DNA of 64,000 nt from Salinispira sp. (GCA_965602015.1 OZ271918.1:896001-960000); one strand, 5' to 3'; shown: positions 3,740-25,922, counted from the stretch's first letter. Notes: generated by a model from the letters alone, not told the origin. A program made the numbers and translations.

Positions 3740-5224
3740 TCAATATAGACCCCGGATGCTTCCCACAACGTAAATCACTATCGCCACGATTCCCGATGCC
3801 AGCACCGTAAGAATGCTCCCGGTCCAGGCCATGTCCTTTATGCTGAAATAGCCTGCCGAATAGGGGATGACATTGGTGGGACTGGAGGTTACCAAAATAA
3901 AAGCCATGGAGGTTGTCAGCGCCGCAGGTATGGCAATGGTCAGCGGATCGATGCCGATGCTCCCCGCCAGGGCGATCATGATGGGGATGACGATGGTGGC
4001 CGTGACGGTGTTGGATGAGAACGCAATCTTGAGAAAGCTGACCATGAGAACGACGATGAACACCAACACCAGGGGGTGAAGCCCGCCGATGCCCCCCAAA
4101 AGCGCCACCGCCAGCCAGTTGGCTGCTCCGGTCTGGTATAACATCATTCCCAGGGAAATTCCTGTGACAACCAGGAGGATTCCGCTCCAGCTGATGTCCT
4201 TCTCTATGGTTTTCCAGGGCAGGGATTTGATCCCCGGGAAGAAAAAGAGGCTGGAAGTCAGCAGGATGGGGAAGGAAATGGGGATATCCATTCCCAGCAG
4301 CCCTTCAAGCAGGGGGCTGGTTACCCACAGTAGTACGGTGAGAACGAAGAGAATCATGGTTATTTTTTCCGTGCGGTTCATCGGCGGAAGCTCGTGATAA
4401 TCCTGTGCCATTTCTTCCTTCGTTTTTTTTAGATGCTTCATTTCCGGCGGGAAAAACAGGAGTAGGGCAAGCCAGACCGGCACAATCAACAGGAGCGCCG
4501 ACGGAACGCCGTAAGCCATCCAGTCGGTAAAGCTGACGTCGATACCTGCCATTTCCTTGAGGAACCCGATGGCCAGGGGATTCGGTCCGGCTCCCGAAGG
4601 TGTGGCGATGCCCCCGACGATGGATCCCCAGCAAATGGAAATCATCAATGCCTTGCCGAAATTGGATTTGAGGGGCTCAACCCCTTCCTCTTCGAGAATG
4701 GCAACTCCGATGGGCATCAGCATGGCCGCAACCGCCATGTTGGTGAGCCACATGGAAAGGACGGTGCCGGTGAGAATGAACCCCAGAATGATTTTGCGGG
4801 TCGAGTTCCCGGTTTTCGACAGTAGAAACACGGAAATGCGCCGGCCCAGTCCGCTGTGAGTGATAAATGCCGAGAGGATGAGAACGCCGAGGAAGAACAC
4901 AAAGATGTGGTTCCCGAATCCCAGGGAGACAATGCTCTTGAAGCTGTCCACCCGGAACACGCTTAACAGGAAAATACTCATCAGGCCGGTTATGTGGAAG
5001 GGGACGGCTTCGGTCATCCAGAGGATCAGGGCAAACAGCAGTACACCTAAAGCCGCCTGGGCCGGCGGGGAGAGGCTGACTCCCCGCACGGTCGTTACCT
5101 CCACCGGCAGGGGGAGGAAGTAGCTGACCAGCGCCAGGGCCAGGGCGGACAACAGAATTACCCCAGCCCGGATTTCTCCAAAATGTGTACGGTGTTTCAC
5201 CGGCGCGTTTGCCTTAGCGTCCAT
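3740..5224 (-). CDS. DASS/SLC13-family anion transporter (candidate sulfoacetate exporter)
   Basis: LWMTEAVP, LSMWLTNMA, GGIATPSGAGPN, SSNTVTA and VTSSPTNVI motifs; last gene of the transketolase operon, overlapping the ligase gene. Confidence 0.85.
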   Translation of the reverse strand: MDAKANAPVKHRTHFGEIRAGVILLSALALALVSYFLPLPVEVTTVRGVSLSPPAQAALGVLLFALILWMTEAVPFHITGLMSIFLLSVFRVDSFKSIVSLGFGNHIFVFFLGVLILSAFITHSGLGRRISVFLLSKTGNSTRKIILGFILTGTVLSMWLTNMAVAAMLMPIGVAILEEEGVEPLKSNFGKALMISICWGSIVGGIATPSGAGPNPLAIGFLKEMAGIDVSFTDWMAYGVPSALLLIVPVWLALLLFFPPEMKHLKKTKEEMAQDYHELPPMNRTEKITMILFVLTVLLWVTSPLLEGLLGMDIPISFPILLTSSLFFFPGIKSLPWKTIEKDISWSGILLVVTGISLGMMLYQTGAANWLAVALLGGIGGLHPLVLVFIVVLMVSFLKIAFSSNTVTATIVIPIMIALAGSIGIDPLTIAIPAALTTSMAFILVTSSPTNVIPYSAGYFSIKDMAWTGSILTVLASGIVAIVIYVVGSIRGLY

Positions 5225-6116
5225 CCACTTCTCCCGGACCTAAAAGTTCGCGAAGCAGCGTTCCGGTTTCAGCCGGTCGCTTTGCCACCGGGACGCCGGC
5301 GGCTTCCAGGATTCTCGTTTTTTCCGCAACCGAGCCGCGGCCGCCGCTGACGATTGCCCCGGCATGGCCCATGCGTTTGCCCTCCGGGGCATTGCGGCCC
5401 CCCAGGAAGGCGGTCATGGGCTTGGTAAATCGCCCCTGGCGAACCATTTCGGCGCATTCTTCTTCCATGCTTCCCCCCAGTTCCCCGATTATCAGGACGC
5501 CGTCGGTCGCATCGTCGGCCTCGTACAATGACAGCATCTCTGCGAAGCGGGTGCCCGGCACCGGATCGCCGCCCACGCCGATGAGGGTGGATACCCCGAA
5601 ACCCTCGCGGACGATCATCGACGTCACTTCGTTGGTGAGGGAGCCTGAACGGGTCATTACGCCGATTCGCCCGGGTTTGTAGACCCGCTCGATCCAGTAC
5701 GGCAGGGCCCCCATCATGGCCTGGCCGGGGGAAATCACCCCGGAAGTGTTGCCGCCGATGACGGTGGCGCTCCGGCACAGGGCCGCAGAACGGATTTTCA
5801 TGGCGTCGTGTAGGGGAATGCCGTCGGCAATGGTGACGATTTTTCGTATTCCCGCGTCCAGGGCTTCGAACACCGCGTCCATGGTGAATCGGGGCGGGAC
5901 GAAGAGCATTGCGGCATCCGCCGGCTGGACTTCAATGGCTTCGGCCATGCTGTCGAACACCGGCACGCCGACGGCTTTCTGACCGCCTTTGCCCGGGGTT
6001 ACCCCGGCGACGACCCGGGTTCCCATGTCGCGCATATGGGCGGTCCAGAATCCGCCCTCCTTGCCGGTGATGCCCGAAACGATGACCCGGGTTTCGGAAT
6101 TGATAAATATGCTCAT
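5214..6116 (-). CDS. SucD-like ADP-forming acyl-CoA ligase alpha subunit (probable sulfoacetate-CoA ligase, SqwKL/SauCD type)
   Basis: GITGKEG, AGVTPGKGG, RSGSLT, GGDPVPG and phospho-His motif MGHAGA. Substrate inferred from gene context. Confidence 0.85.
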   Translation of the reverse strand: MSIFINSETRVIVSGITGKEGGFWTAHMRDMGTRVVAGVTPGKGGQKAVGVPVFDSMAEAIEVQPADAAMLFVPPRFTMDAVFEALDAGIRKIVTIADGIPLHDAMKIRSAALCRSATVIGGNTSGVISPGQAMMGALPYWIERVYKPGRIGVMTRSGSLTNEVTSMIVREGFGVSTLIGVGGDPVPGTRFAEMLSLYEADDATDGVLIIGELGGSMEEECAEMVRQGRFTKPMTAFLGGRNAPEGKRMGHAGAIVSGGRGSVAEKTRILEAAGVPVAKRPAETGTLLRELLGPGEVDGR

Positions 6117-7279
6117 GATGAAGCTCCCGAAGCCCCGGCGGCTAGGTGCACCGCCCGGCGCACCGCGGTTTCCGTATCGAATATCGCTTCAAGGCCCGCA
6201 TCCTCGAGGATCTTTACTGCTGCTTCCTCGTTCGTTCCCCGAATGCAGGTAATGATGGGCCGGTCCGGGCGCAATTCCCGAATCGCCGAGACAATGCCCT
6301 CGGCCATGACATCGGCCCGGGCGATGGTGCCGAAGGTAACCATGAGAATCACCGAGCTCTCGTTTTTTAAGCACAGTTCCATGGCCCGCCGGGCCTTTAA
6401 ATAATTCGGACCGCCGAACTCAAGATAATTGGCAACGCTGCCTCCGGCATCAATAACCAGATCGTATACCGTGGTGGTGAGCCCCGCGCCGGCGCACATC
6501 AGGCTTATGTCGCCGTCAAATTGCAGGTAGGGTATTCCCTCCTGGGCGGCTTCATAGGCTGCGTCGGATTCGTAGTATTCCCGGCCGGCATGATACTCCC
6601 GGTGGCGCGAGAGGGAATTATCGTCAATGGAGATTTTCCCGTCACCGGCTATCAACAATCCGTCGCGGGTAAGAAAAAGCGGGTTTATTTCCGCCAGTTC
6701 GCAGTCCATCCGGGTAAACAGCTTCCAGAGGTTGTGCATCAGCTCGGCGAAGTCCGATGCCGCTCGGCCTGTCAAGGCGAGGCCTTTTACCAGTCGCCGA
6801 ATCTGAAACGGCATGACGCCGCTCTGAAGATCTACCGGGATGCGCATAATGGCCTCGGGACGATCGACGGCCAATTGCTCGATTTCCACGCCGCCTTCCC
6901 CGCTTGCCAGAATAAGGGCGTTGCCGCCCGGCGGATCGACGGTAATCGACAGGTATAGTTCCCGCTCAATATCTACCGCCGCTTCGACCAATACCGAGGG
7001 AACCTGGATATCATGGTCAAACAGCCGTCGTAATTCGGGCAGGAGGTCCTCGTCTTTCTTGATGAAGGGGATGAGCCCGGCCTTGCCCCGGCCCCCAATG
7101 AGGACCTGACTCTTGAGAACCAGCGGAAGCCCCAGCACATCCCAGGCATCCTTAAGTTGGCGTTCCCCGTCGGCAGACTCAGAAGCTTGTTTTGCCGGGC
7201 GGAGTATCCGCACAGAGGGCGGCACCGCTATGCCGAAGTCCGTAAAGGCATCTTTCGCCTGATATTCGAATAACTTCAT
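6113..7279 (-). CDS. SucC-like ADP-forming acyl-CoA ligase beta subunit (probable sulfoacetate-CoA ligase)
   Basis: MKLFEYQAK start (ATG at 7279), KSQVLIGGRGKAG, EGGVEIE, AEINPL. CAGAGLTTTVYD, NYLEFGG and TFGTIARAD diverge from the succinate-type NGAGLAMATMD, NFLDVGG and IFGGIVRCD. Confidence 0.85.
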   Translation of the reverse strand: MKLFEYQAKDAFTDFGIAVPPSVRILRPAKQASESADGERQLKDAWDVLGLPLVLKSQVLIGGRGKAGLIPFIKKDEDLLPELRRLFDHDIQVPSVLVEAAVDIERELYLSITVDPPGGNALILASGEGGVEIEQLAVDRPEAIMRIPVDLQSGVMPFQIRRLVKGLALTGRAASDFAELMHNLWKLFTRMDCELAEINPLFLTRDGLLIAGDGKISIDDNSLSRHREYHAGREYYESDAAYEAAQEGIPYLQFDGDISLMCAGAGLTTTVYDLVIDAGGSVANYLEFGGPNYLKARRAMELCLKNESSVILMVTFGTIARADVMAEGIVSAIRELRPDRPIITCIRGTNEEAAVKILEDAGLEAIFDTETAVRRAVHLAAGASGASS

Positions 7280-7283
7280 TTTT

Positions 7284-8708
7284 CTATGTTCCCGCCTTTC
7301 CCTCGGCCAGCCAGGTTCCGAAAATCTCATCGTCGCCGGGTTTTGCGGTGGGCAGTAGATCGGAGACCCAGGTTACATTCAGAAAGTGCTTGTAGTAGAT
7401 ATTCTCGGTGGTAATGTTGCCCCCCCAGGTACCGCATCCCAGGGTAACGGTTGAGGGCATGCCGTTCCAGAAGTTCCCGCCATTACCCGGTGCCTGGGGC
7501 TGGTTGACCAGAATGCGGCTGGTGCGCTGATGCAGTCCCAGCTCTTCGACGTACGAGCGGGTATTGGTATGAATGCCGCATGAGTGGCCGGTTCCGGCGT
7601 TGTCGGTGAGCCGGGTAAGAATTTCGACGGCTTCGGGGAAGCTCCGGTATTTCCAAACCGTGAGCACCGGCGAGAGTTTTTCCCCGGCGAAGCGGTCGTC
7701 TTCAAGGGGCATCTCGCCTTCGACGACGATCATCCGTTTTCCCGACGGAATGCCGATGCCCGCGCCTTCGGCAATGGCCGCAGCGCTCCGGGCGATGATG
7801 GCCGGATTCAGGGCGCGGTATCCCGCCTTGTTCTCAACCCACATCCAGTCTTCCAGCTTGTTCCGGTCGGATCCCCGGGCGAACCATCCGCCCTCGCTCT
7901 CAAGGCAGGAGCAAAACGTTTCATATATCGACTCGTGGATAATAACCGAGTTTTCGCTGGAGCAGCTGGTTGCGTAATCGAAGCATTTGCTCACCGTTAT
8001 TTTCGCCGCAGCATCGGCGATGTCGGCGTCCTCGGCCACGATCTGCACCGCGTTGCCCGGGCCCACTCCGTAGGACGGGGTTCCGCTTGAATATGCGGCC
8101 TTCACCATGGCGCCGCCTCCGGTTGCCAGCACCAGATCCACCTGTTTCATCAGTTCATTGGTCGCGGGAATCGAGGGCTCGCGAATGATCTGGATCAAAT
8201 CCTCCGGAGCGCCAGCCTGACGCAGGCCATCGCGCATCATGTCCACCGCCAGAGCCGAACTGTTTTTCGATCTGGGGTGGGGGGCGAAGATTACCGCATT
8301 TCGGCCTTTAAGGATGGAAAGGGCATTGCTTCCCGGGGTGGCGGTTGGATTAGTAACCGGGGTAAGAGCGCCCACGACGCCAACGGGTTTGGCGTATTTG
8401 CTGATGCCCCTGGACTCGTCCCGTTCGATGAGGCCTACGGATTTGGCATCCTTTATATCCCTGAGCAGGCCAAGGATTTTTCCCTTGTGTTTTTTTATCT
8501 TGTCCTCGACATTGCCCATCCCCGTTTCCTGGACGGCGTCTGCCGCCAGCCGGGCGATGTTTCCATCGTTGTAGACCTGCCAACCGACGGCCACGCAGAC
8601 CCGGTCGATTTCTTCCTGGGTGTATGAGCTCACCGCCTCTTGGGCTCTGCGGGCTTTACCGACTAATTCGCTGATCATATCGCTGATGTGTGCATCGTGA
8701 TTGTTCAT
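7284..8708 (-). CDS. sauS: CoA-acylating aldehyde dehydrogenase, sulfoacetaldehyde dehydrogenase (SauS/SqwD)-like
   Basis: ATG at 8708 preceded by an AAGGAG RBS; PVTNPTAT, ATGGGAMVKAAYSSG, FDYATSCSSENS (catalytic Cys), EKLSPVL, TLGCGTWGGN. Confidence 0.8.
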   Translation of the reverse strand: MNNHDAHISDMISELVGKARRAQEAVSSYTQEEIDRVCVAVGWQVYNDGNIARLAADAVQETGMGNVEDKIKKHKGKILGLLRDIKDAKSVGLIERDESRGISKYAKPVGVVGALTPVTNPTATPGSNALSILKGRNAVIFAPHPRSKNSSALAVDMMRDGLRQAGAPEDLIQIIREPSIPATNELMKQVDLVLATGGGAMVKAAYSSGTPSYGVGPGNAVQIVAEDADIADAAAKITVSKCFDYATSCSSENSVIIHESIYETFCSCLESEGGWFARGSDRNKLEDWMWVENKAGYRALNPAIIARSAAAIAEGAGIGIPSGKRMIVVEGEMPLEDDRFAGEKLSPVLTVWKYRSFPEAVEILTRLTDNAGTGHSCGIHTNTRSYVEELGLHQRTSRILVNQPQAPGNGGNFWNGMPSTVTLGCGTWGGNITTENIYYKHFLNVTWVSDLLPTAKPGDDEIFGTWLAEGKAGT

Positions 8709-8736: not shown

Positions 8737-9221
8737 TTACTTGAAGTTCTCCGCCTCAATGGACTGCACAAGCTCGAAATTTTTCTGGAGGAAATCCCTC
8801 TTGAATTCCATCTTCTGGGCGAATGCCATGGCGAGCCATGCCTGGGCAATCTGGACTCCCAGGAAGGGCGCGGTTATCCAGCCGCCCATGGTTATGACAT
8901 TCGCATTGTTGATGATTTTTGCCCGCTCGCCGCTGAAAATTGAGTCAGCCACGCAGGCATACACGCCCCGGTGCTTATTGGCGACGATGGCCATGCCCTG
9001 CCCGGTCCCGCACACCAGAATCCCCTTGTCCGCCGTGCCGCTTTGCACGGCTTTTGCGACCTTCGGGGCCTGGGCGGTGTACGGCTCGGGTTTATCCGGG
9101 TCGCTGATGCCGAAATCGATGACGGTGACATCGTCCCGTTCGGCCAGAAACTCGCCGATTGCCTTTTTAGGGGGAATCCCGAAAGGTCCGATGCGATGGC
9201 TATGGTGATGTTTTCTGCCAT
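8737..9221 (-). pseudogene. RpiB/LacAB-family isomerase (SqwI-like sulfoerythrose isomerase) with a single-base frameshift, possibly a sequencing error
   Basis: N-terminus MAENITIAIASDLSGFPLK and C-terminus GILVCGTGQGMAIVANK...NNANVITMG lie in different frames. Adding one A in the A5 run (plus-strand T run 9164-9168) restores LKKAIGEFLAERDDVTVIDFG. Confidence 0.85.
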
Positions 9222-10207: not shown

Positions 10208-11038
10208 TTACTTCTCCTGGTCTTCCAAGGCCCGGATGGCCTCATCTGCGGTTTCCCGGTCGAGGGGCATGTTGTGATTGCCCAAATTGTGCTCTGCGAA
10301 AGCCGCGCCTTTGCCCTTTACGGTATCCATAATGATCATGCTGGGCTTGCCTTGTACCCGTTTTGCGTTTTCGATGGCATCGTCGATGGCAGCCACGTCG
10401 TGGCCGTCTATTCTCTGGACGTGCCAGTTAAACGCGGTCCATTTGGCTGCAATATCTTCCAGACCCATGATGTCAGCCGTCATCCCGTCTATCTGCATCT
10501 TGTTGAAGTCGGTAAAGGCGATGAGGCGGTCGAGTTTGTAATGCGGAGCGGCCATGGCGGCTTCCCATATTTGCCCTTCCTGGCTCTCGCCGTCGCCAAT
10601 GCAGGCGTACACGAATGATTCCTTCTTATCCATGCGCAGACCCAGTGCAATGCCGATGGCCGCCGAAAGGCCCTGGCCGAGGCTTCCGGTAGTCATGTCG
10701 ATTCCCGGGGTGCGATTTCTATCCGCATGGCTGGGGAGGTTGGTTCCCACCACATTCAGGGTCTTTAACCAGTCGGAATGGAAAAAACCCCGGTCCGCCA
10801 GTACACTGTACAGGGCGGGGCCCGCATGGCCCTTGGAGAGGACGAACCAGTCCCGGTTATCCATCCGGGGTTGTTTCGGATCGATGTGCATCTGCCGGTA
10901 ATACAGGACGGTAAGCAGTTCGACAATGGACATCGAGCCGCCGACATGGCCGACTCCCAGGTTGGCGATTGATTCCAGGGTCATCCGGCGTATAAGGCGC
11001 GCCTTTCGCTCAAGGGTGATACGCGTGTTCTGATCCAT
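10208..11038 (-). CDS. Transketolase, N-terminal TPP-binding subunit (SqwGH-like)
   Basis: GHVGGSMS, DWFVLSKGHA, TGSLGQG, TPP motif GDGESQEG...N, DTVKGKG. Confidence 0.93.
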   Translation of the reverse strand: MDQNTRITLERKARLIRRMTLESIANLGVGHVGGSMSIVELLTVLYYRQMHIDPKQPRMDNRDWFVLSKGHAGPALYSVLADRGFFHSDWLKTLNVVGTNLPSHADRNRTPGIDMTTGSLGQGLSAAIGIALGLRMDKKESFVYACIGDGESQEGQIWEAAMAAPHYKLDRLIAFTDFNKMQIDGMTADIMGLEDIAAKWTAFNWHVQRIDGHDVAAIDDAIENAKRVQGKPSMIIMDTVKGKGAAFAEHNLGNHNMPLDRETADEAIRALEDQEK

Positions 11039-11058
11039 AATAGCCTCAAGATATTTAT

Positions 11059-11075
11059 TTACTTACAGGAAATAA
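11059..11075. promoter_or_regulatory. Putative ROK operator TTACTTA-CAG-GAAATAA in the divergent tkt/ROK promoter
   Basis: Matches TTACTTA-N3-TAAGTAA with 2 mismatches; lies just before a TATAAT at 11081-11086. Confidence 0.6.
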
Positions 11076-11118
11076 TTAAATATAATGTAGCATCGCTTCA
11101 CAGGACTGTAAAGCGGTT

Positions 11119-12312
11119 GTGAAGGAATTGAATACGGTGAATACGAAAAATCCGGTGAGAAGCAGCGATATCCGCGAAGCCAATGAGAAGCTCATTCTGA
11201 GCATTATACGTGAAGAGAGAAGCACCTCCCAAAGCGAGGTGGTATCCCGAACCGGGCTGAGAGCGCCGACGGTGCTGAGGTTTTTTACCGATCTTGAAGA
11301 GCGGGGATACATTCAAAAATCCGTCTCATCCGAGCCGCCAACTTCAGAGAGCGAAAAGCGCGGGCGCCGGCCGGTGTACTACGAGGTCGTGCCAGAATCC
11401 GCGTATGCCATAGGGCTCGAGTTCTGGCTGGAGTCTGCTTCGGTGGTAATCGAGGATTTTAGCGGGGAGGTGGTGTATTCCCAGATTGAAGATATTTCCG
11501 GCCGCAGCGGTAATTCCTTACCGGAGTTCCTTATGTCCCTGGTCCGGACAGGCATAAAGCATGCCGGGCTGGAAGATGCGAACATCATCGGCATCTGCGT
11601 CGCCGCACCCGGCCAGGTTGATGTGGAAACCGGCGACATAATCCAGTATTCCCGCAAGGGGCTTGCGGATATAAACCTGCGGGACTTATTCCAATCCGGG
11701 CTTTCCATACCTGTTCTCATCCAGAATAACAGCACCGCCGTCGCCTGGGATTTTTACATGAACGGACCCGGCAGAGAGCATCCGTCCCTGTTTACCATTA
11801 TGATCCGCTCCGGCGTCGGCGGAGCGTTTATCGACAACCGGGAAATTTTCGTTACCAAAACCCATACCACCCTGGAAATCGGTCATATCGCCGTGGAATA
11901 CAACGGACGGGCCTGCGACTGCGGCAGCAGCGGCTGCCTGGAAGCCTATGTGTCCGAACAGGCCATCCTCCAGGACTGCGCCTGTATACCGGGGATCAGT
12001 ACCATCGGCGATTTTGACAGTCTGGATGATGCGGCCCACAAAGAAACCGTCAGCGAATGTCTGCAATCCAAATCCGGCATGCTCGCCATGGCGGTGAGAA
12101 ACCTGATAAGCCTTTTCGGGCCGGAAATGGTGCTTATTGTGACCAGATCCCGGGTTCTCGGCGATATTCTCGCCGGTCAGGTTGCCAAGGAAGTTCGCGC
12201 CCAGTCCAGCGACCGGTGGCAGGGAGAAACCCGGATAGCATCGGCATGCTACGATCCCCTGAGAGCCGGCCGCGGGGCAGCGGAGCTGCTGTTCCGGCAA
12301 TTCCTAGGTTGA
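11119..12312 (+). CDS. ROK-family (NagC/XylR-like) transcriptional regulator
   Basis: N-terminal HTH (SQSEVVSRTGLRAPTV...LEERGYI, GRRP); ROK domain with GVGGAFI, EIGH and CDCGSSGCLE. Confidence 0.92.
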   Translation: MKELNTVNTKNPVRSSDIREANEKLILSIIREERSTSQSEVVSRTGLRAPTVLRFFTDLEERGYIQKSVSSEPPTSESEKRGRRPVYYEVVPESAYAIGLEFWLESASVVIEDFSGEVVYSQIEDISGRSGNSLPEFLMSLVRTGIKHAGLEDANIIGICVAAPGQVDVETGDIIQYSRKGLADINLRDLFQSGLSIPVLIQNNSTAVAWDFYMNGPGREHPSLFTIMIRSGVGGAFIDNREIFVTKTHTTLEIGHIAVEYNGRACDCGSSGCLEAYVSEQAILQDCACIPGISTIGDFDSLDDAAHKETVSECLQSKSGMLAMAVRNLISLFGPEMVLIVTRSRVLGDILAGQVAKEVRAQSSDRWQGETRIASACYDPLRAGRGAAELLFRQFLG

Positions 12313-14458: not shown

Positions 14459-14475
14459 TTACTTATTGTAAGTAA
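14459..14475. promoter_or_regulatory. Putative ROK operator TTACTTA-TTG-TAAGTAA
   Basis: Perfect 7-bp inverted repeat immediately downstream of a TATAAT (14450-14455), upstream of the cupin/ABC operon. Confidence 0.7.
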
Positions 14476-16655: not shown

Positions 16656-16760
16656 GTAAGTATGCCCTGAGCTGCCAGGCTCTCGGCCACGACGGTCGTC
16701 CGGTCTGTATCCTTGGCCGGACGGCCGCACTATTTCACCGTACCCCAGGGAGAACCGCCA

Positions 16761-17651
16761 ATGCGTGTCCGAAGCAAAAAAAATGCCTTGTGGATATTAC
16801 TTTTCCTCGCCCCGGTTTTGATTTTGTACGGACTGTACTTCATCTATCCTCTTGGTTTTATTTTCGTCACCAGCACGCTCGACTGGAACGGTATAAGCGA
16901 ACCGGTTTTTGTTGGTTTGCAGAATTATGTAAAGAATTTTTCCAACGCCACCTTTCAAATATCCCTTCGAAATAATGCGGTGTGGCTATTCGCCAACGGT
17001 ATTCTTCAAATAAGTATGGCCGCCCTCGTAGCCCTCATACTGGCAAGGCAGCCGAAAGGGTGGCGCTTCCTGAGAACCGCGTATTTTCTTCCGAATGTCA
17101 TCTCCCAGGTCGCCATCGCCATGATGTGGGCCGCCCTGTACAATGCGGAGTACGGCGCCATCAATCAATTCCTCTCGGCGATCGGGCTTAACGAGCTGAC
17201 CCGAAACTGGCTTGGGGAACTCAATACCGCCCTCCCGGCAATTATTATCCAGCAGATTTTTTACATCGGATATTTCATGATTATCATTCTCGCCTCGCGC
17301 ATGACTATTCCCGAAAGCCTCTATGAAGCCGCGGAAATGGACGGGGCAAACGCCGTTCAGCAGGACTGGTTCATCACCCTCCCCATGATAAAGCCGATAC
17401 TTATCACCGCAATGACCCTGGCCATGGCCTATGGTCTCAGGCATTTCGAGGCTACATTCCTTTTAACAAACGGCGGGCCGGCGAACCGAACCTCCGTTCT
17501 GGGAATCATGATGTATAAGCGCCTGAGCTCACTTGATTACGGTGAGGCCGCCGCCATCGGCGTTACCCTGGTGATTTTGGGGCTCATTATGATCGTCGTA
17601 ATTCGCAGCACCATCGGGCGCAGAGATTCCGCCTCCGATGTAACGCAATAG
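16761..17651 (+). CDS. Sugar ABC transporter permease
   Basis: FVGLQNY, FLPNVIS and EAA loop IPESLYEAAEMDGA. Confidence 0.92.
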   Translation: MRVRSKKNALWILLFLAPVLILYGLYFIYPLGFIFVTSTLDWNGISEPVFVGLQNYVKNFSNATFQISLRNNAVWLFANGILQISMAALVALILARQPKGWRFLRTAYFLPNVISQVAIAMMWAALYNAEYGAINQFLSAIGLNELTRNWLGELNTALPAIIIQQIFYIGYFMIIILASRMTIPESLYEAAEMDGANAVQQDWFITLPMIKPILITAMTLAMAYGLRHFEATFLLTNGGPANRTSVLGIMMYKRLSSLDYGEAAAIGVTLVILGLIMIVVIRSTIGRRDSASDVTQ

Positions 17652-17662
17652 GGGAGGGCACA

Positions 17663-18511
17663 ATGGCAATCGTTCGTTACGAAACCTCGGGAGACAGGGT
17701 CGGCAAAATCGCCAAGTGGCTGATTCTCGGTTTTTTCTTCCTGTTCACCTTCATGCCGCTGGTATGGCTGCTAATATCGAGCTTCAAGACGAATCTCGAG
17801 CTGCAAATTGCCCCCTTCAGTCTGCCTGAGGTGTGGCAGATTTCCAATTACATCAACGCTTTGAAGATCAGCGGTCTGCCGCGGCTCTTTTTGAACAGCT
17901 TTGTCGTGTCAACTGCATCAACGGCGCTGACAATCCTGGTTACTTCCATGGCGGGTTTTGTGTTTTCCCGGGAGGTTTTCCGGTTTCGTCAGTCCATTCT
18001 CAATCTGATCATCGCCGGCGTTCTGGTCCCCATCATCGCCCTCATGGCCCCCTATTTCAGACTTACCGCGGCCCTCGGCATATATGACACTCTGCTCGCC
18101 CTGATTCTGACCTACACCGCTATAAACATTCCGATTTCCACATTCCTGATGTACGGATTTATGCAGACCCTACCCAAGGAGCTGGAGGAGGCGGCCACCA
18201 TCGACGGAGTAGGATTCGCCGGCCGCTATTGGAAAATCATATTACCGCTGAGCAAATCGGGGATTGTCACCGCGGGAACATTTGTTTTCCTATTCAGCTG
18301 GAATGAATTCATTTACGCCCTGCTGCTGACCTCCCGCCCCGCCGCCCGTACGCTTCAGCTCGGAATCCGTTTTTTCGTAAGTCAATTCTTTACGGATAAT
18401 ACATCCATGTTCGCCGCCATCGTACTGACCATGCTGCCCACTGTTTTGCTGTACGTATTTATGCATGAACAGATTATCAAGGGCTTAACCAGCGGTTCGG
18501 TGAAAGGGTAG
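17663..18511 (+). CDS. Sugar ABC transporter permease
   Basis: EAA loop LPKELEEAATIDG, FSWNEF, C-terminal GSVKG. Confidence 0.92.
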   Translation: MAIVRYETSGDRVGKIAKWLILGFFFLFTFMPLVWLLISSFKTNLELQIAPFSLPEVWQISNYINALKISGLPRLFLNSFVVSTASTALTILVTSMAGFVFSREVFRFRQSILNLIIAGVLVPIIALMAPYFRLTAALGIYDTLLALILTYTAINIPISTFLMYGFMQTLPKELEEAATIDGVGFAGRYWKIILPLSKSGIVTAGTFVFLFSWNEFIYALLLTSRPAARTLQLGIRFFVSQFFTDNTSMFAAIVLTMLPTVLLYVFMHEQIIKGLTSGSVKG

Positions 18512-18523
18512 AGAATAACATTG

Positions 18524-18707: not shown

Positions 18708-19553
18708 ATGAAGCCGGGTAGAAAAATCAGTGGACTCTCACAACAAACACCGGAAGGTAACCATGAGCTGAGCTCTGACGCAGCCAATCTTCCCTTGCCG
18801 CTGGAGATAGTCGAAAATGACACCGAGCTGTACTGGCTCATGGCCCTGGAGCTCTACGGGGCTCTTGCCAGGCTCACTCCCGGAGAATCCCTGCGCTGCA
18901 TCGCTCCGGTGGGGCCGGTTTTCCAGTACCGACGATTTATCAGGCTTGTTGACGAGCTCCCCATTGATTTGGCCGGGCTTCATCTGTTTTTTATGGACGA
19001 ATACCTTAACGACGACGGAAGTGTTATTAATAGGACCGATCCTCTTTCGTTCCGCGGCTTCATCGATAAGGAACTCGTCGAACCGCTGGGGACCCGGCAC
19101 GGCTTCAATCCCGGGCAGCTGTATTTTCCCGACCCCGCTGATCCGTCTTCCTACGACCGCATCATCGATGAACATGGGGGCATCGATGTCTGCTTCGCCG
19201 GTGTGGGAATCAACGGACATCTGGCATTCAACGAAGCGCCGAGCGCCGCCGATTCGCCTTCCAGAGTGGTGGAGCTGTCCGCCGAAACCCGGGTCACTAA
19301 CGGCCATACCGCCCTGGGGGGCGACTGGGAGAGCATTCCCCGGCTTGCCGTCACTGTCGGGATGAAGAGCATACTCGCGAGCCGAAGGCTTCGAATCTAC
19401 TGTAACCGTCCATGGCAGCGATCGGTGGTGCGTAAGCTGCTGTACGGACCGGTCGGTCAGGCCTTTCCGGCATCATTCGCGCAAAACCACCGGGATGCCC
19501 GGCTCACGGTCACAAGGACTGTTGCCGAATCGCCCCGGCCGGGGCTGAAGTAG
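18708..19553 (+). CDS. NagB-like glucosamine-6-phosphate deaminase/isomerase family protein
   Basis: PVGPVFQY, FFMDEY, PLSFRGF, GVGINGHLAFNE, AVTVGMKSIL, FPASFAQNH; start uncertain. Confidence 0.8.
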   Translation: MKPGRKISGLSQQTPEGNHELSSDAANLPLPLEIVENDTELYWLMALELYGALARLTPGESLRCIAPVGPVFQYRRFIRLVDELPIDLAGLHLFFMDEYLNDDGSVINRTDPLSFRGFIDKELVEPLGTRHGFNPGQLYFPDPADPSSYDRIIDEHGGIDVCFAGVGINGHLAFNEAPSAADSPSRVVELSAETRVTNGHTALGGDWESIPRLAVTVGMKSILASRRLRIYCNRPWQRSVVRKLLYGPVGQAFPASFAQNHRDARLTVTRTVAESPRPGLK

Positions 19554-19560
19554 ATACGCT

Positions 19561-20516
19561 ATGGAACTAATTGATTTTCATGTGCACGGCGGGCCGCCCA
19601 AACGCAGCGAAGAAATCACCCGCTATATAAATGAGAGCGGCATTGCAGCCATGGGCATGCTCTCCCTTCCCTGCCTCCTTTGTATGCCTGTGCCACCCTC
19701 AATGACGAGATCCTGGAAACCGCCCGCCGCGTGGATGCCGCCCGGCCGGGCTTTCCGCTTGTTCTCTTCGGCTCCCTCGATGATGAAAAATTACGGGTAT
19801 CAGGCTATGAACCCGAAGAAATGGTGGACGATTTGAAGTCCCGGGGCTTCGGCGGTGTGAAACTCTGGGAGGGCAAACCCCATCTTGTCAGGCGACTTTC
19901 GATGCTTCCCGATGACAGGCGCTTCGTTTTGCTGTGCCGCCGGGCAGCCCAGCTCTCCATGCCGGTCATTTTCCATATTGCGGATCCCCCGGCATTCTGG
20001 AAAAACGGCGGCCCCTATGCCTCCGACGATTCGCTTCCGGGCTTTTCCGACCTTATTGAAGCCGCAAGCCGCCTGGCATCTTTAGCGCCCCAATGCACCT
20101 TCATTTTTCCCCACATGCTGTTTCTCGCCGGGGACCTTGGAGTTGCCGCCCGCTTCCTTGATGAGCACCCGTCTTGTTACTTCGACCTGGCTCCCGGGAA
20201 CTACCTGTTTGCCGATTTGGCCTTGCGCAGGGAGGAGGCTGCTGCGTTTTTCGCACGGTATTCGAAGCGCATTGTATTCGGCACCGACGGCTTCTGGTTC
20301 GACCCCGGTGACAAGACCCTCGCCGGTGACAGCTACGGTGGAAACCTGCTGCGCTTCACCAGACTTCTGGATTTCCTGTCTACGGACCGGCAATTTGACA
20401 ATCCATTTGGCTTTAGCGTTGAAGCCCACCCCCGCATTACCGGCCTCAAGCTGCCGGAAAGCATCCTTCGTCCCATTCTTTCTGAGAATGCAAAGGTCAT
20501 TATGGAGGCCCTATGA
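19561..20516 (+). pseudogene. Amidohydrolase-family (TIM barrel) metalloenzyme split by a one-base frameshift, possibly a sequencing error
   Basis: N-terminal IDFHVH in the frame of 19561; GVKLW, PVIFHIAD, FPH and IVFGTD in the frame of 19680. One extra C in the run at 19669-19671 joins them (LSLPLPPLYACATLN). Confidence 0.8.
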
Positions 20517-21631
20517 TGCGCTGTGCCGTCGCCGGATTGGGTATCGGACTGGCCCATGTCGCCGGCTATTTTGCATCGCCGGATGCCGAACTCGTCGCCG
20601 TTGCCGACCCGTGGGAACCACGTAGGCAGTCCCTCGGCGGAACCTTCGGGCAGGGGAGCATGAGGGTTCTCGAACCCCTGTTCGACGAGGGGCAAAAATC
20701 TGCCAGTTGGGACGAGCTGGGGATAGCGGCGTATGCGGACATATCGTACCTGGCTGAACGCCGCGATATTGATGTGGTCAGTATCTGTACGCCGGCCTAC
20801 CTGCACGAACAGCATGCCCTCTTGCTTCTGGAGGCGGGGAAACACATCATCCTCGAAAAGCCCATTGCCCTGAGTTTGGAGGCGGCGGAGAATATACGCC
20901 GAGCAGCCCGAAGGCTCGGGCTCACGGTGGCTGTGGCCTATGAGTTTCGGGAGAACCCCGCAATCATCGCGTTGAAAGGCCTCGTTGAAGCGGGGGAGTT
21001 CGGGGATATTAGCGCATGGAGCCTGTATCACACCCGCAGGCCCTTCCGAAGGGATAAATGGAATGGCTGGATTCAAAAGCAGGAGAACTGCGGAGGACTG
21101 CTGACCGAGGAAACATCTCATTGGTTCGATCTTCTCTGCCATGTAAGCGGGGATGCAATAACATCGGTGTACTGCCTGGGATCTGCTTCTATCCATGGGG
21201 ATTTTGATTATGAGGATATCGCGTTCTGTCAGGGGAGGATGCAAAGAGGGGCGGTCTGGCAGTTGTCCCACGCGCTTACCAGCCACGATTTCGCCTTGAC
21301 AATCGAGGTTCACGGTACCCGGAGGATGGCCCGGCTATCGCTCAAAGAGGGAGCGTACAGCAGCTTCGACGGCGGCCAAAGCGATTACTGGGGCATACTC
21401 AGCCACGGCCCTGTGAACGGCGGCCCCGGCGATGCGGAAATTACGCGCTGGTCAAGAGAGGCCGGAGAACCCGAGAGTATCAGGGATAACGTGGTTCGGG
21501 TAGTGCAATGCCTCCGCGGCAACAGACCGCTGCCGGTGGGCATTGAAGACGCCATCAGGGCGCTCCGGATATCCCTGGCGGCCAGGGAAAGCATGAACAG
21601 CGGAACTGTTATCGAGATTCCACTGGCTTGA
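20513..21631 (+). CDS. Gfo/Idh/MocA-family NAD(P)-dependent oxidoreductase
   Basis: GLGIG Rossmann motif, ICTPAYLH, GKHIILEKP, GGLLTEETSHWFD. Confidence 0.9.
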   Translation: MMRCAVAGLGIGLAHVAGYFASPDAELVAVADPWEPRRQSLGGTFGQGSMRVLEPLFDEGQKSASWDELGIAAYADISYLAERRDIDVVSICTPAYLHEQHALLLLEAGKHIILEKPIALSLEAAENIRRAARRLGLTVAVAYEFRENPAIIALKGLVEAGEFGDISAWSLYHTRRPFRRDKWNGWIQKQENCGGLLTEETSHWFDLLCHVSGDAITSVYCLGSASIHGDFDYEDIAFCQGRMQRGAVWQLSHALTSHDFALTIEVHGTRRMARLSLKEGAYSSFDGGQSDYWGILSHGPVNGGPGDAEITRWSREAGEPESIRDNVVRVVQCLRGNRPLPVGIEDAIRALRISLAARESMNSGTVIEIPLA

Positions 21632-22271
21632 TTCTGATATTGTCCCCTGTGATGCCCACGTATGCCCCCCGCTGCGCTGCGGGGGATTCGGGATGGCAGA
21701 GCATCCATTTGTTTTTCATGAAGTACGTCGGGTCATCAGACTGCGGAGTTTCCAGGGGGCGGTTGGTTCCCTCCGGAAGGATGATAATCGTGCAAAAGGG
21801 ATGTTCGCTCACCCGGCACGGGGCAAGATGAAGCGTGTTGCCGTATAATTCGACCAGGCTTCCCGCCGGCAGATAGAACGGGACCGCCATTGAGGAATCC
21901 CACGTGAAATCGGTAATATCCTCGGCTCTGCCGAGAAATAGCACCACATCGCTCACCGCAACGATAACCTCGCTTCCCCGATGATACTCCATACCGTTCA
22001 TTCGGTCGTTCATGCCGAAGCATAATCCCGCCTGCAGGGCAGTGGAATTGCCGTATACCTCCGATCGGATTTTTGAAAATGACTCGAAGTGCTTCAGAAC
22101 TTCCAACTCCCGCTTGTATGCCGGACCTTCCAGATCAACCTCGGTCAGCGCCTGTACAAACATCTCGCTGCAGTCTATCCCACGAACCAAACGGCCGTAT
22201 CTCGCCAAATCCGGAGAATCTGCGGGAAGTATCCGCAGGGGGGCATTTGCCTTGTTTAATTGCTCTAACAT
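21609..22271 (-). CDS. DUF4867-family protein (SftX-like, found in sulfoglycolysis clusters)
   Basis: YGRLV, QAGLCFGMNDRMNGMEYHRGSE, VELYGNTLHLAPC, ILPEGTN, KNKWMLCH, GAYVGITGDNI. Confidence 0.8.
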   Translation of the reverse strand: MLEQLNKANAPLRILPADSPDLARYGRLVRGIDCSEMFVQALTEVDLEGPAYKRELEVLKHFESFSKIRSEVYGNSTALQAGLCFGMNDRMNGMEYHRGSEVIVAVSDVVLFLGRAEDITDFTWDSSMAVPFYLPAGSLVELYGNTLHLAPCRVSEHPFCTIIILPEGTNRPLETPQSDDPTYFMKNKWMLCHPESPAAQRGAYVGITGDNIRIKPVESR

Positions 22272-22298
22272 TTATGCTCCTCTTTTAAGCCGGGGATA

Positions 22299-22455
22299 GG
22301 CGCCGCAGCCAAACCGCTGCCGCCAAACCGGCGCCGCAGCCAAACCGCTGCCGCCAAACCGGCGCCGCAGCCAAACCGGCGCTGCCACCCGACCAGCGCC
22401 GCAGCCAAACCGCCGCAGCTCAAATCGGCGCGGCAGGCCAATCTGCGCCGCAGCC
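22299..22455. repeat. GC-rich intergenic tandem repeat
   Basis: 31-bp unit GGCGCCGCAGCCAAACCGCTGCCGCCAAACC exact at 22299-22329 and 22330-22360, followed by degenerate ~15-17 bp GCCGCAGCCAAACC-like subunits. Confidence 0.85.
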
Positions 22456-24437
22456 TATTGACCTGCCAGCTCGGCAAACAGCCCGGCCCAGCGGGATTCG
22501 AGCCGGTAGAATACCGGCGGCTGGCCGTAGGGGGCATCGATCGGCCGGGTCCCGCCGCGGTATTCCGATCCGCTAAAAACGTGAATCCATCGGTCATCGG
22601 GAAAGTACACCGCTCGCTCTGCGGCTTGCTCCTTCACCACTGGGGCCACGAGAATATCCCGGCCCAACAGATATTGCTGGCTATCTTCGTATGCCCGGTC
22701 TTCTTCGTAGTAGAAAAACAGCGGTCTGATTGCCGGAACTCCCTGCTGGTAGTACTCATCCAACACCCCCAGCAGGTAGGGTTTGAGTCGTTTGTGGATT
22801 CTGCTGAAAAGGGCAGTGAGGGACACCGTCAATCCGTCATGGTCGAACTGAACGTTGTCCTTCGGCCGGTTGCCCTCATGGCTCCTCATGAGCGGAGAGA
22901 AGCAGCTCATCTCAAGCCACCGGATATACAGATCCCTCGATCGTTTAATAGATGCCACCGTGATGTATCCGCCGATATCGGAATGGCTGACTCCCATTCC
23001 GCTGAGTCCGGCGGAGATTTGAGCGCGGATGACCGAACCCATTCCGTAATCATCGCTAAAGTCGCAGTGCTGGTCGCCGTTCCACAACATGCCAGCGTGG
23101 CGGCTGGTTCCGGAATACGCGGCCCGGACAAAGAAAAACACGTCTTCCCCGGCGCCCGATTCGACAAGGGCTTCGCGGTTCATTCTGCTCCAGAGCACGG
23201 GCCACAAATTATGAATCAGCTCCGGGTCGCCGGCATGAAGGATGCAGTCGGTGGGCAGATATTCGCTGAAATCCGCCATCCACCCTGAAAGCCCGTAGCC
23301 GATCATATTGGTTTTGACGATGGCTTTCATCCATTCGAAAGCATCCGGGTTGGTCAGGTCCACCATCCCCACGGGGAAACTGGTAGTTTTTACGATATAC
23401 GGCTGCCGGTGCTGGTTTACTACAAGATACCCCCGCGATTCGGCTTCGGCGTATTGCTCGCCGTCGCACGCCAGGAATGGATTAATGTATCCCAGGAATC
23501 TGATGCCCTCCCGCTTCCATTCGCTAATTTTGTGCCGCAGTCCGGGGTAGAGATTCTCATCGGCCTTCCAGTTCCAGAATAACTGTTTGCCGAAGCCGGT
23601 TATCCGCTCGCCCTGCCAGTCCTGCGCCCATATGCCGCACAGCTCGGCGCCGGCCCGCTTCATCGCCCCAACTTTCTCTTCGCATACCGAGCTGCCTCCC
23701 TGGATTCCGAGAATGATGCCGTCGTGAATCCACTCGGGAAGTCTCGGTTGGATGCCCAGGCGTGTATTCAGCTCTCCAACCAGATCTGTGTAGTTCCGGG
23801 CGAATGTCAACACAATTTCTGCCGGCGCTGTGGAAAAGCTCAAGCTGTGACAATCACCGGCGCGGAAATCCAGGACGGCATGGGCTGAGGTATCCACATG
23901 ACAGGAATAGCGGGCCGTGGATATAAAATCAGGTTGTACCTGATATGTGGAATATTTTTCAAATGGCATCGGTTTTTTTATGCCAAGGAGTTTGAGAAGT
24001 TCCTTCCTGATGATCGACCAGGTGGTGGTGTGTTCGCTGATCCAGTTGATCACCCTGCATCCCCTGAGGTTGAAGCGGGCGAATTGTTCGCCGCAGCCGA
24101 AAATCATCTCATCCTTATCCGCCGCAAATTTCACCCTGACAGCCTGATCCTCGGCTAGGTTTCGAAAGCTGAGGCTGACTGAGTTCCCGGTTTCACGAAT
24201 ATCAATGCTGACTTTCTGGAATGCCAGGCTTATGCATTCGCTCTCGCTGATTTCTCCCCGGCCCGCGGAAAAGAATCGGGTCCGGTCCCGTATGCGGAAA
24301 TGACCCTTCTTCATGGCGAAGGTCTGTCGGCGTTTTCCGACAAAGAACGCCGGATCCCCCGGGGAATGCGAAAGAAGGAGACGGTCATTCCAGCGCAGCT
24401 CGAGGACGTGATTATTTGCCTCCAGCTTTATGCTCAT
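22455..24437 (-). CDS. yihQ: Second GH31 sulfoquinovosidase (YihQ)-like glycosidase
   Basis: LGIQGG, QDWQGERITGFGKQLFWNW, LGYINPF, WMADFSEY, WNGDQ, HSDIGGY, MRSHEGNRP. Confidence 0.85.
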   Translation of the reverse strand: MSIKLEANNHVLELRWNDRLLLSHSPGDPAFFVGKRRQTFAMKKGHFRIRDRTRFFSAGRGEISESECISLAFQKVSIDIRETGNSVSLSFRNLAEDQAVRVKFAADKDEMIFGCGEQFARFNLRGCRVINWISEHTTTWSIIRKELLKLLGIKKPMPFEKYSTYQVQPDFISTARYSCHVDTSAHAVLDFRAGDCHSLSFSTAPAEIVLTFARNYTDLVGELNTRLGIQPRLPEWIHDGIILGIQGGSSVCEEKVGAMKRAGAELCGIWAQDWQGERITGFGKQLFWNWKADENLYPGLRHKISEWKREGIRFLGYINPFLACDGEQYAEAESRGYLVVNQHRQPYIVKTTSFPVGMVDLTNPDAFEWMKAIVKTNMIGYGLSGWMADFSEYLPTDCILHAGDPELIHNLWPVLWSRMNREALVESGAGEDVFFFVRAAYSGTSRHAGMLWNGDQHCDFSDDYGMGSVIRAQISAGLSGMGVSHSDIGGYITVASIKRSRDLYIRWLEMSCFSPLMRSHEGNRPKDNVQFDHDGLTVSLTALFSRIHKRLKPYLLGVLDEYYQQGVPAIRPLFFYYEEDRAYEDSQQYLLGRDILVAPVVKEQAAERAVYFPDDRWIHVFSGSEYRGGTRPIDAPYGQPPVFYRLESRWAGLFAELAGQ

Positions 24438-25879
24438 CAGTTTCCTCCGAGGCTCTGATAGGTCCGTCCGGTGACCAGCTCGCAGGCTCGTATCACCTCG
24501 GGGTCATCGGCGCTGTTTTCCCCCCTTGCCCGGGCTTTAAGTTCCTTCCTCATGAGCTCATGGGTTTCCGGGTCGATTTTGAAGTTTCGTGAAAAGGCGA
24601 TGCCGGCAATGAGCAGCACAAAGGGGAAGAATATGAACATAAAGCGGATTCCGTTGATGGTTTGAACGCTTTGGACTGCTCCCCCCTCGACGAAATTGAA
24701 CAGGCTCAGACCGATGCCCACAACCTGGAGGGCGATGGCCTGGGAGATCTTCCTTATAAAAGTCGTCATTCCCGAGTAAATCCCCTCGCGGCTTCTCCCG
24801 CACATAATCGTATCCGCATCAATGACGAAGGGAAGATTGTTGTACGGGACAAAGATTCCCCCAGCCAGTCCGAATGCGAAGACCGCTCCGGTCGTCATTA
24901 TGACCCATGCAGGAACGCCAGAGGGGAGCAGGGAAAGGCCGAGAATGCCCGCCAGGCAGATAAGAAGGTGGCGACGGAAAACCCTGGCGTTCCCCCATTT
25001 CATACAGCTTCGGGCCACAACAATGATTCCGATAATCTGGACAATCAGCACGGTACCGAGAATGAGATTCTCACCCTGGGCATAGTTGAGATAATAAATG
25101 AGGTAGAACATCAAAAGAGCCATAAAAATATCCATGGAGGCGTAGGCTGACAGGTACATGCCGATATGGCTTCTGAAGGACTTGTTCCTGAAGGTGGAAA
25201 AGAACTCGCCGAAGATTTCCCCAATGGTTTTTGCCTGCCGGCTGCGCTCTTCCTCGCTTACCTCCCGCTCCCAGGTGCCGAGATAGGTGAAGATCCAGGG
25301 GGTGGAAAAGAAGATGCCGATGATCAGGGCGAAGTAAAAATACCCCAGATCATTGCGGCCCACCAGGGAAAAAATGATTCCAGGAACTACTGCGCTTACC
25401 AGCGTGCCGAATTGGGAAAACACCATTCTGATTCCCAGCATCTTCGAACGGGATGTATACTCATGAAGCATCTCTGCCGGCAGCGCGTTGTACGGAACCA
25501 TTACCATGGTAAACACCGTGTTAAAAAGCATATAGCTCAGCAGATAATAGATGAACTGGGCGGCTCCGCTCAGCGGCGGGTTAAGCCAGAGAAGAACAAA
25601 AGAGAGGGTGATGGGCACAATACCCAGAAGAAAAAATACCCTCCGGCGGCCGAAACGGCTCCTGGTTTTATCGGAGATAATGCCCATCATGGGGTCGGTA
25701 ACCGCATCCCAAATCTTGCCGAGAGATACGATCAGGCCGGCCATAACCGGATGTATGCCCACATTGGTGGTGAGGAAGAGCAAAAAGTACGTCCCGATGA
25801 TGATAAATGCTCCCCCGCCGTAGATGTCCCCTGCGCCGTAGGCAAGCATGTTCCTGAGTTTTACTTCTCGTTCGCTCAT
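24437..25879 (-). CDS. GPH-family (MelB/YihO-like) glycoside:cation symporter
   Basis: YGAGD, KIWDAVTDPMMGIISDKTRSRFGRRR, VPYNAL, REGIYSG. Confidence 0.9.
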   Translation of the reverse strand: MSEREVKLRNMLAYGAGDIYGGGAFIIIGTYFLLFLTTNVGIHPVMAGLIVSLGKIWDAVTDPMMGIISDKTRSRFGRRRVFFLLGIVPITLSFVLLWLNPPLSGAAQFIYYLLSYMLFNTVFTMVMVPYNALPAEMLHEYTSRSKMLGIRMVFSQFGTLVSAVVPGIIFSLVGRNDLGYFYFALIIGIFFSTPWIFTYLGTWEREVSEEERSRQAKTIGEIFGEFFSTFRNKSFRSHIGMYLSAYASMDIFMALLMFYLIYYLNYAQGENLILGTVLIVQIIGIIVVARSCMKWGNARVFRRHLLICLAGILGLSLLPSGVPAWVIMTTGAVFAFGLAGGIFVPYNNLPFVIDADTIMCGRSREGIYSGMTTFIRKISQAIALQVVGIGLSLFNFVEGGAVQSVQTINGIRFMFIFFPFVLLIAGIAFSRNFKIDPETHELMRKELKARARGENSADDPEVIRACELVTGRTYQSLGGN

Positions 25880-25895
25880 CAGCAGTCCACCCTCT

Positions 25896-25922
25896 TATTA
25901 TTACTTACGGTAAGTAATAATA
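25896..25922. promoter_or_regulatory. Putative ROK operator, palindrome TATTATTACTTAC-G-GTAAGTAATAATA
   Basis: Perfect 13-bp arms containing the TTACTTA-N3-TAAGTAA core, just upstream of the symporter RBS. Confidence 0.75.

Follow-up and report, generated by a model that had tools for sequence, protein, structure and literature searches.

We analysed a 64,000-nt window of the Salinispira sp. genome (GCA_965602015.1, OZ271918.1:896001-960000) in which positions 3740..25922 hold a locus for the degradation of sulfoquinovose (SQ) that, to judge from gene families and gene order, matches the published sulfoacetate-forming sulfo-transketolase (sulfo-TK) pathway, which is reportedly to be credited to Chu et al. 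2023. The core of the locus is in that sense not new; the pathway is known, and what is probably new is its entry enzyme. A KduI/IolB-family bicupin encoded at 14524..15279 (plus strand; PF04962, 37.5 bits against a cut-off of 23.9) probably takes over from SqvD or YihS the conversion of SQ to sulfofructose (SF), within a sulfoacetate sulfo-TK regulon that a ROK-family protein is predicted to repress. The reviews consulted describe two SQ isomerase families, YihS and SqvD/SftI; if our assignment is correct, a third would have arisen from the KduI/IolB cupins by convergent enzyme recruitment.

The absence of a recognised SQ isomerase, which an initial annotation made from the window's sequence alone had pointed out, held when the search was extended to the whole genome, a single contig that is 99.67% complete. 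The FucI-like model PF02952 had no match genome-wide, and as this model alone is a weak test that overlooked one SqvD-like protein, NF048012, tblastn, and a custom hidden Markov model (HMM) were added. NF048012 (SftI) had no match genome-wide at E ≤ 0.1, the best tblastn hit of E. coli YihS against the genome had an E value of 9.2, and the HMM of spirochaete SqvD-like proteins from sister clusters gave a best E value of 0.86 against the genome. The YihS family model PF07221 had no match genome-wide either, in a weak test in which the E. coli positive control failed to register. Neither YihS nor SqvD/SftI was found in the genome, and the isomerase gap is real. The gene cluster u13 upstream of sqwG was considered as a fourth isomerase and rejected; it has no Pfam match and is lipoprotein-like.

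The cupin and SqvD are mutually exclusive. Among the best 80 of 451 metagenome loci anchored on SqwI, 19 contain an SqvD-like gene, 10 contain the cupin, and none contains both; for the 38 of these loci that are at least 10 kb long the corresponding counts are 15, 9, and 0 (Fisher p 0.005, the loci not being independent). No SqvD-like gene was present in any of 80 cupin loci, which are the best 80 of 103 GTDB loci and comprise 53 from spirochaetes and 27 from other phyla, or in any of 15 fetched displaced sqw clusters. Within the order to which the window belongs, SqwI is encoded in 29 of 99 genomes. Two of these 29 (G000 and G001) have the cupin, the next best score being 53 bits, and both lack an SqvD-type gene. 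Of the 27 without the cupin, 24 carry an SqvD-like gene that scores at least 357 bits (23 of the 26 outside the HMM training set), and the remaining three include one with a partial SqvD-like copy on the SqwI contig and two scoring 263 and 127. A quick SqwH tree, reduced from 91 to 79 rows by removal of near-duplicates, has 42 cupin and 37 SqvD rows; its cupin/SqvD state needs nine changes, at least three of them forced by strongly supported branches, so that the swap recurred at least three times on this tree. The new upper-pathway enzyme that the initial annotation had suggested is by now well supported, the cupin being a candidate that behaves as an SqvD replacement.

The neighbourhoods of the cupin point to the step at which it acts. 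Forty-eight of the 53 spirochaete cupin genomes carry SqwG/SqwI or an SF transaldolase (TAL), and the last five have YihQ (four genomes) or an SqvA-type transaldolase (one). SqwG or SqwI lies within the locus in 26 of the 53 spirochaete cupin loci, often with the cupin first (cupin-sqwGHIDKL-DASS), and 19 of the other 27 spirochaete cupin genomes encode a SqwI orthologue (70-88% identity) elsewhere; in a phylum sample of 401 genomes, two of which duplicate genomes reached via the loci, the background for SqwI is 7. An ABC sugar-binding protein also recurs in sqw clusters. Transaldolase clusters with the cupin were found in three small-genome Spirochaetia (L036, L037, and L043), where the cupin stands in a compact sulfo-transaldolase cluster with a GH188-like enzyme, a TRAP transporter, an SqvA-like (BmSF-TAL-like) transaldolase, and TauE; DUF4867 is present as well in L036 and L037. 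The L037 transaldolase scores 273 bits on BmSF-TAL and no higher than 151 on any other transaldolase; for the L036 Gfo protein the score on 8QC3, which we take to be SqgA, is 370 bits. The cupin thus appears to serve both the TK and the TAL routes, and because these routes share only SQ and SF, with SqwI and DUF4867 present alongside, the predicted cupin step is SQ to SF.

The cupin belongs to a tight family with at least 120 homologues at 55-87% identity, for which database labels read 5-deoxy-glucuronate or KduI isomerase; an Atlas search likewise gave nothing beyond clusters with a KduI label. When a profile of 50 homologues was compared with the PDB, all six matches at E ≤ 1e-3 were KduI aldose-ketose isomerases, and Foldseek with the AlphaFold model (pLDDT 89.4) put KduI at the top and an IolB-like protein in 16th place. 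Pfam score and bicupin fold place the protein in the KduI/IolB family (PF04962; TM 0.61-0.69 to KduI structures 7E4S, 7YE3, 7YRS, and 1XRU and IolB structure 2QJV), and KduI and IolB are themselves aldose-ketose isomerases of anionic sugars. All 50 aligned homologues have H165, H167, E172, and H212 in common. The metal ligands of Lacticaseibacillus KduI are H198, H200, E205, and H248, and in its crystals the cleft takes up sulfonate buffers (MES) through R163, T184, and the T194 backbone (PMC10792219). The four KduI ligands align with the four invariant cupin residues, giving a His-His-Glu-His motif at which the cupin is predicted to bind a metal, and R163 and T184 align with invariant K133 and T153. 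Equivalents of Thr184, Tyr207, and Trp260 are shared, whereas R163 is replaced by K and R203 by Q, and pectin or inositol genes are absent among the recurring spirochaete cupin neighbours. Because its score on the KduI model NF002091 (41.2 bits) is far under the cut-off of 250, the cupin is not a KduI; it is a plausible isomerase that would work like one. Compared with SqvD/SftI (FucI-like, PF02952, NF048012) and YihS (PF07221), the cupin has the same predicted reaction but an unrelated fold and sequence. SqvD is also proposed to be metal-dependent and to act on the open chain, and SqvD-like genes of sister genomes have the same operator and clusters as the cupin, although the two were never found in one cluster.

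That operator is the palindrome TTACTTA-N3-TAAGTAA, which we defined from a perfect copy at 14459..14475, 49 bases upstream of the cupin start, and a copy with two mismatches at 11059..11075 in the divergent sqwG/ROK promoter region. It has five matches in the window versus 0.59 expected, a figure that is partly circular; a second perfect copy at 25901..25917, upstream of the GPH-GH31-DUF4867 operon, is independent, being outside the pattern definition and turned up by the search. The copies at 14459 and 25901 are the only perfect ones in the genome. Operator-like palindromes cover the cupin, the sqw/ROK promoter region, and the GPH operon, and we infer that they are bound by the ROK-family protein (11119..12312, plus strand; PF00480 plus a helix-turn-helix), the predicted repressor of the locus. 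The co-regulation that the initial annotation had assumed for four extra genes, the cupin and a trio of NagB-like, amidohydrolase, and Gfo/Idh/MocA genes, is supported for the cupin by its own palindrome; the trio has no site of its own and would be joined to the regulon by gene order alone. In other genomes 16 of 23 displaced cupins have the palindrome no more than 200 bases away (at most three mismatches; five at no more than two) versus 1 of 298 background windows, a contrast that is flattered by the coding and other non-intergenic DNA in those windows, and it precedes 9 of 22 SqvD-like genes (at most two mismatches). Treponeme-type clusters do not have this palindrome and carry another one instead: in many treponeme-type cupin-sqw operons (L048-L069) a palindrome with the core TTAAAGACTTTAAC is found about 35 bases before the cupin match, and the ROK regulator of these operons is a more distant one. 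The 11059 copy overlaps a sigma-70-like site (11058-11086), of a kind that is no commoner than chance in the region.

Open reading frames and family scans confirmed every gene that the initial annotation had named. The core genes form a leftward operon on the minus strand, running from 11038 to 3740 in the order sqwG-sqwH-sqwI-sqwD-sqwK-sqwL-DASS. It encodes SqwG-like and SqwH-like N- and C-terminal transketolase subunits (10208..11038, PF00456; 9268..10245, PF02779 and PF02780), a SqwI-like RpiB-family isomerase (8737..9221, PF02502), a SqwD/SauS-like CoA-acylating sulfoacetaldehyde dehydrogenase (7284..8708; best model NF047625, SauS, 515.5 bits against a cut-off of 600), the beta and alpha subunits of a SqwKL-like CoA ligase (SqwK-like, 6113..7330, SucC-like at 291 bits and short of the SucC cut-off of 375; SqwL-like, 5214..6116, SucD-like), and a DASS/SLC13 carrier (3740..5224; TIGR00785, 232.5 bits, above cut-off). 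The likely start of the SqwD-like gene is 8708, where a ribosome-binding site precedes an ATG; the open frame reaches 8849. One-base frameshifts split the RpiB-like gene (at 9163) and the amidohydrolase gene (at 19668) in the assembly. In read contigs from public runs of one sample the missing base is present at full depth, in three of four at 9163 and in four of four at 19668; both genes are therefore intact, the frameshifts are assembly errors, and a pseudogene reading is ruled out.

The sulfoacetate variant of the sulfo-TK pathway consists of SqwGH, SqwI, SqwD, SqwKL, and the entry isomerase SqvD (PMC12890257, PMC11659671, PMC9594981). Our labels for the core genes, drawn from family scores and gene order, from the way these genes recur beside YihQ and SftI-like genes, and from the existence of separate paralogues in the genome, place all of SqwG, SqwH, SqwI, SqwD, SqwK, and SqwL in one cluster, and the pathway assignment of the initial annotation agrees with them. 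The C-terminal part of the SqwI-like protein is 68-83% identical to RpiB genes in spirochaete sqw operons; a second SucC/SucD-like pair (47% and 34% identical) and a further transketolase-like gene (33%) are found elsewhere in the genome; and the same operon recurs in other genomes with YihQ, DUF4867, and SftI-like isomerases. The closest homologues come from Spirochaetota records, which bears out the suspected spirochaete origin. The statement that the variant is known mainly from Firmicutes and Mollicutes needs correction, as Spirochaetes are already listed among its carriers (PMC12890257). The locus shares with the described pathway the split transketolase, the RpiB-family isomerase, the acylating dehydrogenase, the ADP-forming CoA ligase, YihQ, and SqvB, and differs from it in having a KduI/IolB cupin in the regulon and no SqvD, two R301Q GH31s, the NagB/amidohydrolase/Gfo trio, and a DASS carrier in place of the TauE-type exporter SqwE, which family scans did not find in the cluster. 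This carrier, which adjoins sqw genes in 17 of the 80 cupin loci, is the predicted sulfoacetate exporter. In four other sqwGHI loci (L120, L189, L193, and L194), with which L179 was grouped, an aldehyde:ferredoxin oxidoreductase stands in place of SqwF or SqwD/KL and is possibly a further end route for sulfoacetaldehyde.

Divergent from the sqw operon, on the plus strand, the ROK gene is followed by a first YihQ-family GH31 (12323..14389; NF007746, 834 bits), the cupin, an ABC sugar-binding protein (PF01547; 15399..16655, 15399 being the likely start of a frame open from 15186), two ABC permeases (16713..18511, with genes at 16713-17651 and 17663-18511; PF00528), and the trio; no ABC ATPase gene was seen in the locus. 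A convergent operon on the minus strand encodes a GPH/YihO-like symporter (24437..25879; TIGR00792, above cut-off), a predicted importer of SQ or SQ glycosides, a second YihQ-family GH31 (22455..24437; 732 bits), and DUF4867 (21609..22271; PF16161, 196 bits). Both GH31s exceed the NF007746 cut-off of 553, keep the catalytic pair D405/D472, and are predicted sulfoquinovosidases; the first is 45% identical to E. coli YihQ, and the second is 42% identical to YihQ and 39% to the first. The sulfonate motif of GH31 sulfoquinovosidases is Q/E-R-W-Y (Q288, R301, W304, Y508) (PMC12780224). In both GH31s R301 is replaced by Q, with K at 300, and Q288, W304, and Y508 are kept. The Q301 variant was found in 22 of 38 motif-matched GH31s from fetched SQ loci; because it occurs with either isomerase it is not tied to the cupin, and it is possibly an undescribed sulfoquinovosidase motif. 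SqvD-type clusters of the same order (L248-L264) contain GH116 in eight loci and GH4 with an APH-like kinase in seven, a hint at other sulfoquinovosides. DUF4867 is SqvB/SftX, a family separate from the cupin and present alongside it in this locus, and has been proposed to be a mutarotase or ring-opening partner (PMC9594981), although mutarotase activity was not detected in a nuclear magnetic resonance assay of SqvB/SftX (PMC11968277). With this putative mutarotase in the locus and an aldose 1-epimerase gene elsewhere in the host genome, the earlier statement that a mutarotase is missing does not stand.

Taken together, these assignments predict the following route. The ABC system and the GPH symporter would import SQ glycosides, the two GH31s would release SQ, and DUF4867 may open its ring. 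The cupin would take open-chain SQ at its His-His-Glu-His metal site, with the sulfonate placed near K133, T153, and R160, and would isomerise C1/C2 as KduI does with an anionic uronate. SqwGH, SqwI, and again SqwGH would then yield two xylulose-5-phosphate and sulfoacetaldehyde, from which SqwD and SqwKL would form sulfoacetate and ATP, and the DASS carrier would export the sulfoacetate.

Other explanations account for part of these observations. The cupin could be an accessory ring-opening or anomerase enzyme, with SQ isomerised by a moonlighting SqwI, by DUF4867, or by a housekeeping isomerase. Cupins do include the ring-opening KdgF, and DUF4867 is a cupin of unproven function (PMC11968277); yet such a role gives no reason for the exclusion of SqvD, the cupin also occurs in transaldolase clusters of genomes without SqwI, and 18 fetched loci contain both the cupin and DUF4867, whose profiles are not similar (probability 0.12), so that we regard an accessory role as unlikely. 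It is distinctly unlikely that the cupin acts on another sulfosugar (sulforhamnose, for example, or another epimer) and isomerises it to a ketose accepted by SqwGH, in which case cupin clusters would differ in substrate from SqvD clusters. The loss of R301 from both GH31s, the failure to find known sulfoquinovosidases in non-spirochaete cupin genomes, and the extra glycosidases GH116 and GH4 in sister clusters would fit such a substrate, but Q301 is found in SqvD clusters too, the cupin also occurs beside R301-type YihQ (L054, L057, and L063) and beside a GH188-like enzyme, and regulator, operator, and transporter are common to both cluster types.

The NagB-like protein of the trio offers another candidate for the SQ isomerase, acting by aldose-ketose isomerisation without deamination; NagB chemistry converts an aldose 6-phosphate to a ketose, and the catalytic motifs are kept. 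We consider it very unlikely, as the gene co-occurs with SqvD-like genes in L164, L165, L169, and L260 (those of L164 and L169 being cut by contig ends) and has no match in 36 of 50 cupin genomes. Hardly any weight can be given to the idea that the core consists of ordinary pentose-phosphate and succinyl-CoA enzymes and that the locus is not for sulfosugars: the alpha subunit is just over the SucD cut-off (339.8 versus 336 bits) and the dehydrogenase is under that of SauS, but separate transketolase and SucCD-like genes exist elsewhere in the genome and the operon recurs in the company expected from the published pathway. Conversion of SQ to SF by the cupin remains the reading that we prefer, and several observations weigh against it. 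Neither isomerase was found in 14 of the 38 SqwI loci of at least 10 kb, and the comparison involves related genomes, many of them incomplete. The best model for the SqvD-like proteins is NF048012, whose cut-off they do not reach (158-344 of 700 bits). A FucI-like paralogue of some kind is present in 51 of 80 cupin genomes, with up to 239 bits in spirochaetes and 288 overall, and such scores overlap those of three held-out SqvD-like proteins with the first HMM (193-265 bits); of four such paralogues that were checked, none adjoins SQ genes. The cupin is only 14-17% identical to KduI/IolB structures (Foldseek), and both GH31s depart from the sulfonate motif. Finally, YihQ (E ≤ 1e-60) or SqgA (E ≤ 1e-45) was found in 0 of 27 non-spirochaete cupin genomes, and the cupin family may therefore not be isofunctional.

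The trio consists of the NagB-like gene (18708..19553), an Amidohydro_2 gene (19561..20516; PF04909), and a Gfo/Idh/MocA oxidoreductase gene (20513..21631), all on the plus strand. It was found complete in ten fetched loci, two of which belong to the same genome; two of the ten contain the cupin and four an SqvD-like gene, and the NagB-like gene is present in 14 of 50 cupin genomes. Because it occurs with either isomerase type the trio is no isomerase substitute; it is accessory. The initial annotation had treated cupin and trio as one set of four extra genes, of which the cupin now stands apart as the SqvD replacement, and its weaker idea of an additional sulfosugar substrate survives for the trio alone. 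The NagB-like protein scores under the NagB cut-offs (99.7 versus 326 and 91.1 versus 236.9 bits), and its motifs FMDEY and GHLAFNE align with solved NagB, presumably supplying the catalytic Asp, His, and Glu. The phosphate loop of NagB is not kept and reads PVGPV. This loop was rejected as a sulfonate signature, since it marks a broad subfamily in which stand-alone copies and copies beside GH20 share it. The Gfo protein was likewise rejected as a GH188 SqgA, there being no GH188 structure among its four PDB matches at E ≤ 1e-15. Elsewhere the NagB-like subfamily is paired with an amidohydrolase and GH20. We tentatively suggest that the trio might serve an amino-sugar route of release, de-N-acetylation, and deamination that turns a 6-sulfonated N-acetylhexosamine into SF. 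A simpler alternative is ordinary hexosamine use, in favour of which the trio holds the genome's sole NagB-like match and no NagA scores above cut-off in the genome. Literature searches returned nothing relevant on such an amino-sulfosugar and nothing naming sulfoquinovosamine; an amino-dideoxyhexose sulfonate reportedly occurs in a Halococcus cell wall. In L090, L091, and L092 a NagB-like gene and a PIG-L de-N-acetylase adjoin the cupin, mirroring the NagB and amidohydrolase pair of the window.

A broader proposal, which we put forward as speculative and rather doubtful, is that there are two new gateways to SF: the cupin, as a third SQ isomerase family that would also mark unrecognised sulfo-transaldolase clusters in Verrucomicrobia, Planctomycetes, and Acidobacteria with no known sulfoquinovosidase, and the trio, which would turn an N-acetylated amino-sulfosugar, the sulfonate analogue of GlcNAc-6-phosphate, straight into SF. 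Among the 27 non-spirochaete cupin genomes, four have a transaldolase bearing both SqvA-type motifs and three have a transketolase with RpiB; the SqvA-type motif is absent from seven transaldolases adjoining Acidobacterial cupins. In L090, L094, L099, and L100 (Verrucomicrobia and Planctomycetes) the cupin adjoins an aldehyde dehydrogenase gene and one for a transaldolase in which both BmSF-TAL motifs, TTNPRH and SPFxGWK, are present; three of the four add a pyridoxal phosphate enzyme and a 2-hydroxyacid dehydrogenase, and neither YihQ nor SqgA was found in those genomes. The Acidobacterial cupins of L076, L077, L078, L080, L081, and L083 stand with a LarA-type racemase, an aldehyde dehydrogenase, TIM-barrel epimerase-like genes, and an aldose 1-epimerase. 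The aldehyde dehydrogenase adjoining non-spirochaete cupins proved indistinguishable from GabD.

Our literature searches found no published proposal of a cupin SQ isomerase, although cluster figures and supplements of the primary sulfo-TK papers may show the gene. The word "cupin" is absent from the main text of a 2026 review and of a rumen study, and in PMC11968277 it is used for DUF4867 and related folds. At least one recent survey calls a sulfo-TK or sulfo-TAL cluster only where a known SQ isomerase is present (PMC13372026). If the cupin is an SQ isomerase, such surveys would miss cupin-type clusters, which make up 10 of the 29 metagenome loci anchored on SqwI whose isomerase could be identified, and the family would be one more marker of SQ fermentation in free-living spirochaetes and, possibly, in other phyla.

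Several further features of the region were noted. Promoter and terminator counts are at chance level. A beta-propeller gene (2786-3640) and ABC genes (655-2536) left of the locus have no matches among the fetched loci; a fourth operator-like site with two mismatches (2611-2627) lies upstream of this ABC transporter operon, which was not seen in related SQ loci. Between the ABC permease and the NagB-like gene, an intergenic repeat (18512-18672) has 75 blastn matches in the genome, six of them near full length, at 71-74% identity. Adjoining the locus on its right, 25974-31275 encodes a DtxR/TroR-like regulator and, after it, a metal ABC transporter of the TroABCD-like kind.

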